64,000 bases of DNA, taken from the NCBI RefSeq assembly GCF_056746865.1, contig NZ_CM163382.1; one strand, written 5' to 3'. The position numbers were made by a program, and so were the translations under genes. Below the pieces are notes generated by a model. It saw nothing but the letters and a program-made list of their open reading frames with translations. It searched no databases and had not been told where the DNA came from. Below, one piece after another: positions 2,712-63,238 of the stretch (position 1 is the first letter of the stretch; every line of letters begins with the position of its first letter).

Positions 2712-3466
<755 letters not shown>

Positions 3467-4255: not shown

Positions 4256-4332
<77 letters not shown>

Positions 4333-15408: not shown

Positions 15409-15529
15409 ACTTTTATCCACTTTATTGCTGTTTACGGTCCTGATGACAGGACCGTTTTCCAACCGATTAATCATAAATATGAAAAATAATTGTTGCATCA
15501 CCCGCCAATGCGTGGCTTAATGCACATCA

Positions 15530-15688
15530 ACGGTTTGACGTACAGACCATTAAAGCAGTGTAGTAAGGCAAGTCCCTTCAAGAGTTATCGTTGATACCCC
15601 TCGTAGTGCACATTCCTTTAACGCTTCAAAATCTGTAAAGCACGCCATATCGCCGAAAGGCACACTTAATTATTAAAGGTAATACACT
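15530..15688 (+). promoter_or_regulatory. cspA long 5' untranslated leader (cold-box / RNA thermosensor region); 5' boundary approximate
   Basis: About 160 nt AT-rich leader upstream of cspA ATG; cspA leader function is established knowledge, TSS not determined here. Confidence 0.55.
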
Positions 15689-15901
15689 ATGTCCGGTAAA
15701 ATGACTGGTATCGTAAAATGGTTCAACGCTGACAAAGGCTTCGGCTTCATCACTCCTGACGATGGCTCTAAAGACGTGTTCGTACACTTCTCTGCTATCC
15801 AGAACGATGGTTACAAATCTCTGGACGAAGGTCAGAAAGTGTCCTTCACCATCGAAAGCGGCGCTAAAGGCCCGGCAGCTGGCAACGTAACCAGCCTGTA
15901 A
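15689..15901 (+). CDS. cspA: Major cold shock protein CspA, 70 aa
   Basis: Translation [70 protein letters not shown]. Confidence 0.98.
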
Positions 15902-15928
15902 TCTCTGCTTAAAAGCACAGAATCTAAG

Positions 15929-15958
15929 ATCCCTGCCATTTGGCGGGGATTTTTTTAT
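15929..15958 (+). terminator. cspA rho-independent terminator
   Basis: atccctgccatttggcggggattttttt. Confidence 0.8.
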
Positions 15959-16088: not shown

Positions 16089-16241
16089 TTACTCTTTCAA
16101 TTTGCAGGCTAAAAACGCCGCCAGCTCATAACTCTCCTGTTTAATATGCAATTCACACAGTGAATCTCTTATCATCCAGGTGAAAAATAAAAGCGTGAAA
16201 CAAATCACTATTAAAGAAAGTAATCTATATTTCTGCGGCAT
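16089..16241 (-). CDS. hokA: Type I toxin HokA (Hok/Gef family membrane peptide), 50 aa
   Basis: Translation MPQKYRLLSLIVICFTLLFFTWMIRDSLCELHIKQESYELAAFLACKLKE; intact frame. Confidence 0.9.
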   Translation of the reverse strand: MPQKYRLLSLIVICFTLLFFTWMIRDSLCELHIKQESYELAAFLACKLKE

Positions 16242-16301
16242 TCCCAGCCCCCTGTGTTGATTTCCAACGAGTAAGAGGCTAACCTTATGGTGTCTATGCA
16301 T
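16089..16301 (-). CDS. mokA: MokA, in-frame upstream reading frame coupled to hokA translation, 70 aa
   Basis: ATG at complement 16299..16301; frame continuous into hokA; hok/mok/sok architecture is established knowledge. Confidence 0.6.
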   Translation of the reverse strand: MHRHHKVSLLLVGNQHRGLGMPQKYRLLSLIVICFTLLFFTWMIRDSLCELHIKQESYELAAFLACKLKE

Positions 16302-16521
16302 AGAGGGGCCTCACTTTGATTTATAGTCAGGTGGGGCTTTTCTCTGTCTGCCTTTCGGTGAATACCTGAGACAAACAGTCTCAAGCACCCGCAGCTATTC
16401 TAGCTTAATAAGTTCGTTTCTTCTCCTTGATATAATCCTAAAAAAATCTCATAAAATTAATATATGAGACAATCTTTATTCAGCAGAAGATTATTAAAGG
16501 TTGCTCTATTATTTAGCGATA

Positions 16522-57322: not shown

Positions 57323-58459
57323 TCAATGATCCAAATAAAGATAATGCATCCAGCTGGTCATTCTTAGCAGCACTTTCCGCATCACCGAAACATGGCTGAA
57401 ATGGTCGGAGTAAACCGCCACCTGGGCGTAGATGCCGTCGGGTAAGGCATCGATATCATCGTTAGGGTCCAGTTCAATGGTTCCCAGCACACCGTCCGTG
57501 CCGGGCACGACCGTTAATGATTGCAATACCCCCTGCGCCTGATAAGAACCGCCTGGCACGACAGGTAAAATACTGGTCAGTTTGCCGTGGAACACCTGCC
57601 CAGGTAGCGCGTTAAACACCACTTCCGCATCATCGCCGGGTTTCAGACGTAACAGCGAGTTTTGCCGAAATTGGGCGACAATTTGCCGTTTTTGCTCGGG
57701 GATGAAAACCATCACCGGACGCAACGGCAAGGCAGCTGCGTATGTACCTGGGCGGATCAGTACCTGAGTAACGTAGCCATTGCTCGGCGCGCGAATGACA
57801 GTCTGCTCAAGGTTATATTTTGCTTCAGTAAGTTGCGCTCTTAAGCTCACAATCTGCGATTGCTCGCCGTTAACCATACTATCGAGCTGGCTCTGGATCT
57901 GCGCCTGCTCCGCCACCGAGCCTTTCACCAGCGCATCCTGCGCGAGGAAATTTTGCCGCGCATCGTCGATGTCACGTTCCGAGAACGGATTCACCGCCGC
58001 CTGGCTGCCTTTCAGATAACGTTGATAATTTTTAAACAGACGGTCGCGCTCCGCTGAAACCTGGGTGGTGTTGGCCTGCGCTTCAGTGAGCTGCGCGCGC
58101 AGCGTCTTTATATTATGCGTCGCCGTCATCAGGTCAGCCTGAAGTCTGTCAACTCGCGCCTGGTAACGAACCGGGTCGAGTTTAAAAAGCACCTCGCCCT
58201 TTTGAATAAGCTGATTATTTTTGTCGGTGACTTCAGTAACAATTCCCGTCACCTGTGGCGTGATGGGGATCGCTATCACTGCCTTTTGCGCGGTAAAAGT
58301 GTAAGGGTGGTTGTAGTTCATCAACAAAATCAAACCACTCACCAGAAACACGCCTCCCAGCGCCGCCGTCGCCAGCGTCCACTGATTCACCGGAATGCGG
58401 AAGATTTTAAAGACCGCCCACGCCAGCGCCACGTAAGTTAAAACAATCAATAGATCCAT
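57323..58459 (-). CDS. yibH: HlyD-family membrane fusion-type inner membrane protein YibH
   Basis: Translation [52 protein letters not shown]...; 378 aa. Confidence 0.9.
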
Positions 58460-58461
58460 AT

Positions 58462-58824
58462 TTAGATCTCCGGGAACGTGGAATAGTCAGTCTTTTTCTC
58501 GGCGGCGAGTTGGTGCTCCAGCCGGGAAATTCGGTCAGAAAGTGCGGCGATTTCCGGGTCAGTCGCTTTCTCTTGCGACGCAACATGTGACTGCATGCCC
58601 CAGCCGCGCTCCGGTTGATAGAGCGTCGCCCAGATCCACAGGAACGGCCAGATAACATGTAGAGTAAACAGGCTCACCCAGCCCGCCGTATGAATAGCGT
58701 CGGCATGGGGATGGTTGCGCTTTTTGGCAATCAGATAAGGGATGTCATGTATCGCGATGATTCCATAAAAAATCACCAGAAAGACGAAGATCAGCACTCC
58801 CAACGCGAAATAGTTTAGAAACAT
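58462..58824 (-). CDS. yibI: Small inner membrane protein YibI (DUF3302), 120 aa
   Basis: Translation [53 protein letters not shown]... Confidence 0.9.
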
Positions 58825-59040
58825 ATCTGCCTCGGATTCACGTTTATCGGTGTTGTTTTTTGGCTGGCAGCCAGAAGGGAGTCAGGCTGATATTTTGACA
58901 ATAATTCGGGTTCGCGATTCTCGCCATAACACCAAAGAATAATTTTTAGAGGTGATGAGTTGCTTAGTTACATAACGATTTTATGACGAAGGCATAACAT
59001 GCTGCAGATCACATCAGGTGAACGCCGTAAGAAAATATCT

Positions 59041-59217
59041 TGTGATTCAGATCACAAAGATTCAACAAACTAACAAAACAAAAATGTGACATTACTCACA
59101 TTTAAATGCCATTTTTAGCGAAAATCGCCGCCTTGTTGCTTTTTTACACAGTCGTTTTGTGATGAGCATCACGTCAATTACCTCTCTACCCCCTATATTT
59201 ATGTGACTGATATCACA
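59041..59217 (+). promoter_or_regulatory. mtlA promoter region with at least four CRP-type palindromes TGTGA-N6-TCAC(A/G): 59041..59056, 59085..59100, 59158..59173, 59202..59217
   Basis: Palindromes read directly (tgtgattcagatcaca; tgtgacattactcaca; tgtgatgagcatcacg; tgtgactgatatcaca); multiple CRP sites in mtl promoter are established knowledge. Confidence 0.7.
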
Positions 59218-59360
59218 CAAAAGGCCGTCGACTGGACAGTTAACCGATTCAGTGCCAGATTTCGCAGTATCTACAAGGTCCGGCTACCTCTGCCGCCACA
59301 TTAACAAAAAACCTCGGGCTTCCAGCCTGCGCGACAGCAAACATAAGAAGGGGTGTTTTT

Positions 59361-61274
59361 ATGTCATCCGATATTAAGATCAAAGTGCAAAGCTTTGGTC
59401 GTTTCCTCAGCAACATGGTGATGCCAAATATCGGCGCGTTTATCGCGTGGGGTATCATCACCGCGTTATTTATTCCAACAGGGTGGTTACCGAACGAAAC
59501 GCTGGCGAAGCTGGTCGGGCCGATGATCACTTATCTCCTGCCGCTGCTGATCGGTTATACCGGTGGTAAGCTGGTAGGCGGCGAACGTGGCGGTGTAGTC
59601 GGTGCCATCACCACCATGGGCGTTATCGTCGGCGCAGATATGCCGATGTTCCTCGGTTCTATGATTGCAGGTCCGCTGGGCGGCTGGTGCATTAAGCACT
59701 TCGACCGCTGGGTAGACGGTAAGATCAAATCCGGTTTTGAGATGCTGGTGAATAACTTCTCCGCAGGCATCATCGGGATGATCCTCGCTATTCTGGCATT
59801 CCTCGGCATTGGCCCGATTGTTGAAGCTCTGTCTAAAATGCTGGCTGCGGGCGTTAACTTCATGGTTGTCCATGACATGCTGCCGCTGGCGTCTATCTTT
59901 GTTGAACCGGCGAAAATCCTGTTCCTCAACAACGCCATTAACCACGGTATCTTCTCGCCGCTGGGTATTCAGCAGTCCCATGAACTGGGTAAATCCATCT
60001 TCTTCCTGATTGAAGCTAACCCAGGTCCGGGTATGGGCGTGCTGCTGGCGTACATGTTCTTTGGGCGTGGTAGCGCTAAACAGTCTGCGGGCGGTGCGGC
60101 AATCATCCACTTCCTGGGCGGTATCCACGAAATCTACTTCCCGTATGTGCTGATGAATCCGCGTCTGATTCTGGCCGTTATCCTCGGTGGTATGACTGGC
60201 GTGTTCACGCTGACTATCCTGGGCGGTGGTCTGGTTTCTCCGGCATCTCCGGGTTCTATCCTTGCTGTACTGGCGATGACACCAAAAGGTGCATACTTCG
60301 CTAACATCGCGGGTGTGTGTGCGGCGATGGCTGTCTCCTTCGTTGTCTCTGCCATTCTGCTGAAAACCAGCAAAGTGAAAGAAGAAGATGATATTGAAGC
60401 AGCAACTCGTCGTATGCAGGACATGAAAGCTGAGTCTAAAGGCGCGTCTCCGCTGTCTGCGGGCGATGTGACTAACGACCTGAGCCACGTACGTAAAATC
60501 ATCGTTGCCTGTGATGCCGGTATGGGTTCCAGTGCGATGGGCGCAGGTGTGCTGCGTAAGAAAATTCAGGATGCAGGTCTGTCGCAGATTTCGGTCACTA
60601 ACAGCGCGATCAACAACCTGCCGCCAGATGTGGACCTGGTCATCACTCACCGTGACCTGACCGAACGCGCTATGCGCCAGGTTCCGCAGGCACAGCATAT
60701 TTCGCTGACCAACTTCCTCGACAGCGGCCTGTACACCAGCCTGACCGAACGTCTGGTTGCTGCCCAGCGCCATACTGAAAACGAAGTGAAAGTGAAAGAC
60801 AGTCTGAAAGACAGCTTTGACGATTCCAGTGCTAACCTGTTCAAACTGGGCGCGGAGAACATCTTCCTCGGTCGCAAAGCGGCAACCAAAGAAGAAGCGA
60901 TTCGTTTTGCTGGCGAGCAGCTGGTGAAAGGCGGTTACGTTGAGCCGGAATACGTTCAGGCGATGCTGGATCGTGAAAAACTGACCCCGACTTATCTGGG
61001 TGAGTCTATCGCGGTGCCACACGGTACGGTTGAAGCAAAAGATCGCGTACTGAAAACGGGCGTGGTGTTCTGCCAGTACCCGGAAGGCGTGCGCTTCGGT
61101 GAAGAAGAAGATGACATTGCCCGTCTGGTGATTGGTATTGCTGCCCGTAACAACGAGCACATTCAGGTTATCACCAGCCTGACCAATGCACTGGATGATG
61201 AGTCTGTCATCGAGCGTCTGGCACACACCACCAGCGTGGATGAAGTGCTGGAACTGCTGGCAGGTCGTAAGTAA
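59361..61274 (+). CDS. mtlA: PTS mannitol-specific EIICBA component
   Basis: Translation MSSDIKIKVQSFGRFLSNMVMPNIGAFIAWGIITALFIPTGWLPNETLAKL...; 637 aa. Confidence 0.98.
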   Translation: MSSDIKIKVQSFGRFLSNMVMPNIGAFIAWGIITALFIPTGWLPNETLAKLVGPMITYLLPLLIGYTGGKLVGGERGGVVGAITTMGVIVGADMPMFLGSMIAGPLGGWCIKHFDRWVDGKIKSGFEMLVNNFSAGIIGMILAILAFLGIGPIVEALSKMLAAGVNFMVVHDMLPLASIFVEPAKILFLNNAINHGIFSPLGIQQSHELGKSIFFLIEANPGPGMGVLLAYMFFGRGSAKQSAGGAAIIHFLGGIHEIYFPYVLMNPRLILAVILGGMTGVFTLTILGGGLVSPASPGSILAVLAMTPKGAYFANIAGVCAAMAVSFVVSAILLKTSKVKEEDDIEAATRRMQDMKAESKGASPLSAGDVTNDLSHVRKIIVACDAGMGSSAMGAGVLRKKIQDAGLSQISVTNSAINNLPPDVDLVITHRDLTERAMRQVPQAQHISLTNFLDSGLYTSLTERLVAAQRHTENEVKVKDSLKDSFDDSSANLFKLGAENIFLGRKAATKEEAIRFAGEQLVKGGYVEPEYVQAMLDREKLTPTYLGESIAVPHGTVEAKDRVLKTGVVFCQYPEGVRFGEEEDDIARLVIGIAARNNEHIQVITSLTNALDDESVIERLAHTTSVDEVLELLAGRK

Positions 61275-61502
<228 letters not shown>

Positions 61503-62651
61503 ATGAAAGCATTACATTTTGGCGCAGGTAATATCGGTCGTGGCTTTATCGGTAAACTGCTGGCAGACGCGGGTATCCAACTGACGTTTGCCGATGTCAA
61601 TCAGGTGGTACTTGATGCCCTGAATGCCCGTCATAGCTATCAGGTTCATGTGGTCGGTGAAACCGAGCAGGTAGATACCGTTTCCGGCGTCAATGCCGTC
61701 AGCAGCATTGGTGATGATGTCGTTGATCTGATTGCTCAGGTTGATTTAGTCACTACCGCCGTTGGTCCGGTTGTGCTGGAACGTATTGCCCCGGCAATCG
61801 CCAAAGGGCTGGTGAAACGTAAAGAACAAGGTAATGAATCCCCGCTGAACATCATCGCCTGTGAAAACATGGTACGCGGCACCACGCAGCTGAAAGGCCA
61901 TGTAATGAACGCCCTGCCGGAAGATGCCAAAGCGTGGGTAGAAGAACACGTTGGCTTTGTCGATTCCGCCGTTGACCGCATCGTGCCGCCTTCGGCTTCT
62001 GCAACCAACGATCCGCTGGAAGTGACGGTAGAAACATTCAGCGAATGGATTGTTGATAAAACCCAGTTCAAAGGCGCGCTGCCGAACATCCCAGGCATGG
62101 AGTTAACTGACAACCTGATGGCATTTGTCGAACGTAAACTCTTCACCCTGAACACGGGTCATGCTATAACCGCGTACCTCGGAAAACTGGCCGGTCATCA
62201 GACCATTCGTGACGCTATTCTCGACGAGAAAATCCGCGCGGTGGTAAAAGGTGCGATGGAAGAAAGTGGTGCAGTATTGATCAAGCGCTACGGCTTTGAC
62301 GCAGACAAACATGCGGCGTACATCCGGAAAATCCTCGGTCGTTTCGAGAACCCGTATCTGAAAGATGATGTAGAGCGCGTAGGCCGTCAGCCGCTGCGTA
62401 AACTGAGTGCTGGCGACCGTCTGATCAAGCCACTGCTCGGAACGCTGGAATATGGTCTGCCACATAAAAACCTGATTGAAGGTATTGCCGCTGCAATGCA
62501 CTTCCGCAGTGAAGATGATCCGCAGGCTCAGGAACTGGCAGCACTGATCGCTGACAAAGGTCCGCAGGCGGCGCTGGCACAGATTTCCGGTCTTGATGCC
62601 AACAGCGAGGTTGTATCCGAGGCGGTAACCGCTTATAAAGCAATGCAATAA
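61503..62651 (+). CDS. mtlD: Mannitol-1-phosphate 5-dehydrogenase, 382 aa
   Basis: Translation [53 protein letters not shown]...; start at ATG 61503. Confidence 0.97.
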
Positions 62652-63238
62652 TGGTGGACCAGGCGCAGGATACCCTGCGCCCGAATAACAGATTGTCAGA
62701 TATGCAGGCAACAATGGAACAAACCCAGGCCTTTGAAAACCGTGTGCTTGAGCGTCTGAATGCTGGCAAAACCGTGCGAAGCTTTCTGATCACCGCCGTC
62801 GAGCTTTTGACCGAGGCGGTAAATCTTCTGGTGCTTCAGGTATTCCGCAAAGACGATTACGCGGTGAAGTATGCTGTAGAACCGTTACTCGACGGCGACG
62901 GTCCGCTGGGCGATCTTTCTGTGCGTTTAAAACTCATTTACGGGTTGGGCGTCATTAACCGCCAGGAATACGAAGATGCGGAGCTACTGATGGCATTGCG
63001 TGAAGAGCTAAATCACGACGGCAACGAGTACGCGTTTACCGACGACGAAATCCTTGGACCCTTTGGTGAACTGCATTGCGTGGCGGCGTTACCACCGCCG
63101 CCACAGTTTGAACCTGCAGACTCCAGTTTGTATGCAATGCAAATTCAGCGTTACCAACAGGCTGTGCGATCAACAATGGTCCTTTCACTGACAGAGCTGA
63201 TTTCCAAAATCAGCTTAAAAAAAGCCTTCCAAAAGTAA
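62651..63238 (+). CDS. mtlR: Mannitol operon repressor MtlR
   Basis: Translation [53 protein letters not shown]...; 195 aa. Confidence 0.95.
   Translation: MVDQAQDTLRPNNRLSDMQATMEQTQAFENRVLERLNAGKTVRSFLITAVELLTEAVNLLVLQVFRKDDYAVKYAVEPLLDGDGPLGDLSVRLKLIYGLGVINRQEYEDAELLMALREELNHDGNEYAFTDDEILGPFGELHCVAALPPPPQFEPADSSLYAMQIQRYQQAVRSTMVLSLTELISKISLKKAFQK

Follow-up and report, generated by a model that had tools for sequence, protein, structure and literature searches.

The CRP site array upstream of mtlA in an Escherichia coli genome as the probable five-site operator-promoter of mtlADR: site spacing, conservation and repression by MtlR

The window analyzed in this study, 64,000 nucleotides of contig NZ_CM163382.1 (NCBI RefSeq assembly GCF_056746865.1), carries a dense array of CRP sites upstream of mtlA. 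This array is very probably the five-site cAMP-CRP operator-promoter of mtlADR, which CRP activates and MtlR represses via the 44-bp spacing of its CRP sites. No sequence evidence contradicting this explanation was found. Both the element and its mechanism have already been described in detail, and recognizing the element here adds no new biology. The binding of CRP, the docking of MtlR, the start of transcription and the phenotypes of the mutants are taken from the literature on K-12, and the sites, their statistics and spacing, the identity with K-12, the conservation and the intact mtlR with its CRP-contact residues come from this analysis. The coordinates of all features are listed in Table 1.

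The sites were searched with the CRP pattern TGTGANNNNNNTCACA (TGTGA-N6-TCACA), of which the 10 core positions were scored, in scans that allowed up to 2 and up to 3 mismatches. In the whole 64-kb window, four sites with no more than one mismatch were found within positions 59041-59217. An earlier note on this DNA had reported the same four sites at the same coordinates. It had, however, counted two of them as perfect, which was a miscount, as three sites match at all 10 core positions. The array of four sites described in the note stands, but a fifth and weaker site, CRP1, was missed; it lies 43 bp upstream of CRP2 and outside the interval that was considered. Among the identified sites, CRP3 matched the 22-bp consensus best (17 of 22 positions). 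The three perfect matches in the 64-kb window all lie within 59041-59217, and the two other sites with no more than one mismatch, at positions 3452 and 20232, are both imperfect. Base composition predicts 0.06 perfect sites in 64 kb and, per 177 bp, 0.005 sites with no more than one mismatch, where four were seen. The Poisson probability of at least four sites in a given 177 bp is ~3e-11, or ~1e-8 when all positions of the window are allowed for. This low probability, the 95% conservation of the CRP cores amid diverged surroundings in 48 species and the published phenotypes of K-12 site mutants (PMC13421365) all argue against a functionless chance cluster of palindromes, a reading whose likelihood we regard as negligible.

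Table 1. Positions of the CRP sites, promoter elements, conserved blocks, genes and RNA features in the window
Feature	Position	Strand	Sequence or match	Remarks
CRP1	58998-59013		CATGCTGCAGATCACA; 7/10 core, 3 mismatches	centre 59005.5; published -262.5
CRP2	59041-59056		TGTGATTCAGATCACA; 10/10 core	centre 59048.5; published -219.5
CRP3	59085-59100		TGTGACATTACTCACA; 10/10 core	centre 59092.5; published -175.5
CRP4	59158-59173		TGTGATGAGCATCACG; 9/10 core, 1 mismatch	centre 59165.5; published -102.5
CRP5	59202-59217		TGTGACTGATATCACA; 10/10 core	centre 59209.5; published -58.5; promoter-proximal
AACAAA block	59064-59069	.	AACAAA	centre of CRP2-CRP3 spacer; non-CRP
CRP3-CRP4 gap	59101-59157 (intervening)			73 bp centre to centre
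TGT-N2-T7-ACAC block	59134-59149	.	TGT-N2-T7-ACAC	in 73-bp spacer, ~24 bp upstream of CRP4 centre
Putative -35	59233-59238	+	TGGACA	read from sequence, placed from published start numbering
Cra (FruR)-like box	59240-59252	-	CTGAATCGGTTAA; pattern STGAAWCSNTHHW	in -35/-10 spacer
Putative extended -10	59253-59261	+	TG-c-CAGATT	sequence reading; 17 bp past TGGACA
Inferred transcription start and mtlA 5' untranslated region	59268-59360	+		start at 59268; ~93 nt; from CRP5 = -58.5 (PMC13421365)
mtlA	59361-61274	+	NCBIfam NF011663, 1324 bits, full length	mannitol PTS enzyme IICBA, 637 aa
mtlD	61503-62651	+	NF002648, 878 bits	mannitol-1-phosphate 5-dehydrogenase, 382 aa
mtlR	62651-63238	+	NF008234, 256 bits	MltR-family repressor, 195 aa
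yibI	58462-58824	-		start codon at 58824; upstream, divergent from mtlA
yibH	upstream of array	-		HlyD-like; beside yibI
cspA thermoregulator leader	15529-15956	+	Rfam gathering threshold	
sok-type antitoxin RNA	16239-16390	-	Rfam gathering threshold	hok/sok-like locus, beside cspA leader
tRNA	4259-4332	-	Rfam gathering threshold	

The window is from E. coli, with the gene order yibH-yibI / mtlA-mtlD-mtlR. The centres of the five sites are spaced by 43, 44, 73 and 44 bp, respectively. Three pairs are thus 43 to 46 bp apart, CRP1-CRP2 (43 bp), CRP2-CRP3 (44 bp) and CRP4-CRP5 (44 bp), and no others were found among the sites with up to 2 mismatches in the window; in the literature, mtl is claimed to be unique in E. 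coli in having CRP pairs at this distance. In the mtl control region of K-12, five CRP sites were reported at -262.5, -219.5, -175.5, -102.5 and -58.5, of which the spacing is 43/44/73/44; CRP1 matches 7 of the 10 core positions, and CRP2 and CRP3 match all 10 (PMC13421365). The five-site mtl region is credited to Ramseier and Saier (1995), as cited in PMC5320558 and PMC13421365. Because the centres of the four sites are spaced 44/73/44 and a 7/10 site lies 43 bp upstream of them, the four sites of the earlier note are assigned to CRP2 to CRP5 in the mtlADR control region as published with five sites, with CRP1 located just outside the interval; the pattern of spacings and the match counts are the basis of this assignment. 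The description of the array as a multi-CRP mtl promoter was borne out by the mtlA-mtlD-mtlR genes downstream, by the identity with K-12 and by the published spacings and match counts. The MtlR translated from the window also possesses both R167 and L178.

The yibI-mtlA intergenic region is 536 bp long (58825-59360), and 5402 of 5426 complete E. coli genomes contain it with an identity of at least 95%. The allele of the window is 100% identical to that of strain 118UI, and identities of 99% or more were found in only 268 of 5404 genomes. The alignment with K-12 MG1655 is free of gaps and contains 13 substitutions in 536 bp, none of which are in the core pentamers. Of the 13 differences, five fall within N6 (two in CRP4 and a single one in each of CRP1, CRP3 and CRP5), and these could shift the affinities for CRP slightly. 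The window does not differ from K-12 in the promoter and the 5' untranslated region, between 59218 and the start of mtlA. Comparison of eight E. coli alleles of 58825-59360 (the window, L001, L002 and L083 to L087) revealed no indels in 536 bp and 41 variable columns, of which 9 were in the 30 N6 positions and 1 in the 50 core positions. The excess of substitutions in N6 has a nominal P of ~4e-4, which is inflated because four of the nine columns come from one clustered change in one divergent strain, and the excess was not relied on as evidence. The L002 allele has a clustered five-base change in CRP3 that includes one core position.

For comparison across species, 80 species loci were fetched from the genome collection with the first 250 residues of MtlA, and the 500 bp upstream of each locus was scanned for sites with up to 2 mismatches. 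The 44/73/44 spacing was exact in 47 of the 80 loci, which belong to Enterobacteriaceae, Erwiniaceae, Yersiniaceae, Hafniaceae and Budviciaceae, and close variants were found in 14 more. These variants were 44/72/44 in three loci, one of which is from Providencia (Morganellaceae), 44/74/44 in one locus, 45/73/44 in five Aeromonas species, 45/73/43 in Photobacterium, one Vibrio and Agarivorans, 45/74/43 in Tolumonas and 44/63/44 in Edwardsiella hoshinae (L039). Two Pasteurellaceae had three perfect sites spaced 40/44. In the remaining 17 loci, mostly from Vibrionaceae and Photorhabdus, no four sites with up to 2 mismatches were found. Of 1600 shuffled upstream regions, only 2 contained any two sites at a distance of 38-50 bp. 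In an ungapped stack of 48 Enterobacterales sequences, the mean majority identity was 95% for the core, 54% for N6 and 57% for the inter-site positions, and the core positions of CRP2 were 92-100% conserved. The earlier note had proposed conservation in related genomes as a check on the array, and the sites proved to be kept across Enterobacterales and beyond. Previously, operator layouts were compared in four other species (PMC13421365). The scan of 80 species shows that the entire 44/73/44 layout, beyond the 44-bp pairs, is conserved far past these four species.

In K-12, the mtl transcription start was mapped by S1 nuclease (PMC13421365), and its position in the window was transferred from the numbering of that study. 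With this start, TGGACA followed after 17 bp by TG-c-CAGATT reads as a plausible weak extended -10 promoter for sigma-70. The -35 region, CTGGACAG, is conserved in Enterobacteriaceae, and T59260 of the putative -10 is 94% conserved. Enterobacteriaceae have CAGATT as the -10, and in the same register the other Enterobacterales families have GTGnTAGAGT, in which TAGAGT is preceded by TG. Across Enterobacterales, CRP5 and the -10 keep a constant distance from each other. In a consensus promoter scan, the putative mtlA promoter was not called, as expected for an activator-dependent promoter, and the sole promoter-like match (minus strand, 59367-59340) and the sole terminator-like match of the promoter and terminator scan were at the shuffle expectation. 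CRP5, centred at -58.5, is displaced by ~3 bp from -61.5, which is the classical position for class I activation. For a comparison with class III promoters, the multiple CRP sites are observed, the hexamers are read from the sequence and the position of -58.5 for CRP5 comes from the published study (PMC13421365).

The spacer between the putative -35 and -10 also contains a match to the pattern STGAAWCSNTHHW, for which 5 matches were found in the window and 1.2 were expected. This box is kept as CGATTCAG in Enterobacteriaceae only and is absent from the promoters of Yersiniaceae, Erwiniaceae and Hafnia. Judged by the Cra consensus, 59240-59252 is presumably a Cra box. Cra is listed as a repressor of mtl (PMC13421365), and the Cra-like box fits the reported repression. 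In the mtlA leader, no riboswitch or MtlS-like sRNA was found, as an Rfam search by E-value of 58400-59700 on both strands returned nothing. An Rfam search of the whole window at the gathering threshold returned only the cspA leader, the sok RNA and one tRNA, all of which are away from the mtl leader. The small ORFs of the intergenic region encode 22-42 aa, plus one of 93 aa over the mtlA start, and each of them overlaps the start of mtlA, the promoter or CRP sites. Further downstream, the 228-bp mtlA-mtlD intergenic region (61275-61502) contains REP-like palindromes, GCCTGATGCGCTACGCTTATCAGGCCTAC and GTAGGCCGGATAAGGCGTTTACGCCGCATCCGGCA, and two copies of the hairpin-forming repeat CTCTCCACATGGAGA(A/G)GGT.

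Previous results with K-12 showed that CRP is indispensable for mtl transcription and that chromosomal mutants of CRP2, CRP4 or CRP5 did not grow on mannitol (PMC13421365). Mutation of CRP3 had a mild effect, and CRP1 was dispensable and poorly occupied (PMC13421365). CRP binding to K-12 DNA was examined by EMSA in the same study, and the K-12 cores are identical to those of the window. At high cAMP, CRP dimers on CRP2 to CRP5 would activate the weak sigma-70 promoter (TGGACA, 17 bp, CAGATT), and transcription would begin ~93 nt ahead of mtlA. The promoter-proximal CRP5 probably touches RNA polymerase, and the upstream CRP sites, which are also required, probably contribute architecturally.

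MtlR is devoid of a DNA-binding domain and does not bind to mtl DNA alone (PMC13421365). It supershifts DNA only if two CRP dimers are bound at a distance of 43-46 bp, of which 44-45 bp is optimal, and the 73-bp CRP3-CRP4 pair is not bound by MtlR unless the gap is cut to 44 bp (PMC13421365). The unrelated malK operator was bound by MtlR once the insertion of arbitrary sequence had widened its site spacing from 34 to 44 bp, and R167 and L178 of MtlR are required for docking on CRP (PMC13421365). An earlier study from the same laboratory did not detect the MtlR-CRP interaction without DNA (PMC5320558). At the two 44-bp pairs, CRP2-CRP3 and CRP4-CRP5, an MtlR dimer would span the two CRP dimers on the DNA and prevent activation. 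Given that MtlR docks on CRP pairs at a set spacing, repression would be set by spacing and not by operator sequence. Induction follows when MtlA captures MtlR at the membrane through its dephosphorylated IIB domain, and HPr competes for the same surface of MtlR, which gives glucose priority over mannitol (PMC13421365). With mannitol, the operon would be induced while dephosphorylated IIB keeps MtlR at the membrane; with glucose, dephosphorylated HPr would displace MtlR from MtlA and repression would return. This docking model rests mainly on one study (Lee et al., NAR 2026, PMC13421365). If so, mtlADR is an example of combinatorial control in which the sites of one global activator are the on-switch and also, by their geometry, the place where an operon-specific repressor unable to bind DNA on its own can dock.

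The earlier note had instead left room for MtlR operator sequences between the CRP sites. In such an arrangement, MtlR would repress via its own sequence-specific operators in the gaps, and the CRP sites would serve for activation. The AACAAA block in the CRP2-CRP3 spacer is in its favor, as this block equals the CRP cores in conservation among the 48 Enterobacterales species (A59065 and A59067 100%, A59068 and A59069 98%, C59066 88% and A59064 79%). Because the block is as conserved as the cores, the sequence of the CRP2-CRP3 gap is not free. However, AACAAA is absent from the CRP4-CRP5 spacer, where MtlR binds equally well and which is poorly conserved across species. No motif that is both common to the two 44-bp spacers and conserved across species was found, and the CRP2-CRP3 and CRP4-CRP5 modules are identical at only 10 of their 40 non-core positions, which is the chance level. 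The same count led us to reject an origin of the CRP pairs by duplication. Moreover, MtlR has no DNA-binding domain and gives no shift of mtl DNA by itself, and arbitrary spacers support binding, both in the engineered malK operator and when the CRP3-CRP4 spacer is shortened (PMC13421365). The operator reading is largely refuted by the published EMSAs, and separate MtlR operators are very unlikely.

With docking of MtlR on the CRP pairs as the preferred explanation, the distance between the two pairs deserves separate consideration. The gap between CRP3 and CRP4 is 73 bp in 55 of the 61 loci with four sites, 72 or 74 bp in five and 63 bp in Edwardsiella hoshinae, which is one helical turn less. 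The 73-bp gap is as constrained as the 44-bp spacings. A gap that is nearly invariant suggests a helical-phase constraint, which is not analyzed in the literature on mtl reviewed here. The gap also contains the TGT-N2-T7-ACAC block, whose conservation is moderate (0.7-1.1 bits per column over 62 loci) and of which Aeromonas, Providencia and Kluyvera have TGTAG..(C)TACA-like versions. This block could be an A-tract with an intrinsic bend or the site of another protein. In Aeromonas and Vibrio, no AACAAA block was seen in the corresponding register. The AAAATA sequence at 59032-59037, just upstream of CRP2, is conserved too. When the consensuses of Fis, IHF, TyrR, LacI-family and LysR-type proteins were compared with the conserved blocks by eye, no convincing fit was found.

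These features raise the possibility that the two pairs are phase-locked by the 73-bp gap into one higher-order complex for activation, together with the spacer elements or an extra protein such as Fis. Such a complex would add to the known mtl model and would not replace it, and we consider it possible but rather doubtful. In addition to the near-constant gap and its variation by one turn, the total span is kept, as the 45/73/43 layout of Vibrionaceae and the 44/73/44 layout of Enterobacterales both amount to 161 bp. The blocks within the gap and within the CRP2-CRP3 spacer, the absence of indels from the 536 bp of the eight E. coli alleles and the essential role of the distant CRP2 and CRP4, for which phase-dependent looping was speculated (PMC13421365), also point in this direction. 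However, a low indel rate and selection on each pair and on the promoter distance could suffice to explain the constraint. In addition, deletion of fis or cra had only slight effects (PMC13421365), the conserved blocks are without an assigned protein, and the block in the gap carries only ~1 bit per column. Hence, the gap and the blocks support, but do not prove, a phase-locked complex, which would be a refinement of the known system. That four CRP dimers in one helical phase form a single wrapped nucleoprotein complex, possibly with a DNA-bending or DNA-binding partner, is accordingly only a tentative proposal. If true, a single wrapped complex would explain why sites out to -219.5 are essential for activation. 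The two conserved spacer blocks could guide mutagenesis.

The intergenic region is shared with the divergent yibI on the minus strand, and CRP1 is ~180 bp from the start codon of yibI. CRP1 and CRP2 might therefore control yibI-yibH, either in addition to mtl or instead of it. Against this, the consensus scan found no yibI promoter, the stretch from yibI to CRP1 is not kept in register with the array, its conservation upstream of 59030 being close to zero, and the published site phenotypes concern mtl (PMC13421365). In E. coli GPEC1054 (NZ_CM142793.1; L082:155-3000), an IS21-family element with istA/istB, which is ISSso4-like, is inserted between CRP1 and CRP2. Its junction corresponds to about position 59025 of the window, and CRP2 to CRP5 and the promoter are intact, making this a natural allele without CRP1 in cis. 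The allele fits the reported dispensability of CRP1. The element also separates yibI from CRP2 to CRP5, which further argues against control of yibI-yibH by the upstream part of the array, and we consider such control improbable.

Similar to the mtlADR operator-promoter of K-12, the array of the window is at the same locus and shares the cores of CRP1 to CRP5, the 43/44/73/44 spacing and an intact mtlR with R167 and L178; the 13 single-base differences between the two show no sign of functional change. In Salmonella enterica and Vibrio cholerae, mtlA is likewise preceded by several CRP sites, which include pairs spaced by 43-44 bp, and MtlR docks on CRP pairs (PMC13421365); five CRP sites were verified for V. 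cholerae (PMC6597380). V. cholerae differs in that it adds the antisense sRNA MtlS and that its MtlR does not bind EII-Mtl; unlike V. cholerae, the window has no Rfam match or MtlS-like element at the mtl leader. Similar to MtlR on the CRP pairs, the repressor of the CytR-CRP complexes, for instance at deoP2, is held between two CRP dimers and functions by anti-activation. The CRP spacing of deoP2 is 52-53 bp. CytR possesses a DNA-binding domain and an operator of its own, whereas MtlR has neither and reads only the geometry of the two CRP dimers (PMC13421365). A CytR-type CRP sandwich was rejected for the window, as its repressor belongs to the MltR and not the LacI/CytR family and the spacers share no motif. 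Finally, malEp-malKp likewise possesses a dense array, in which three or four CRP sites form a higher-order activation complex. Different from the mtl pairs, however, its sites are 34 bp apart, and MtlR is recruited only when this spacing is stretched to 44 bp (PMC13421365).
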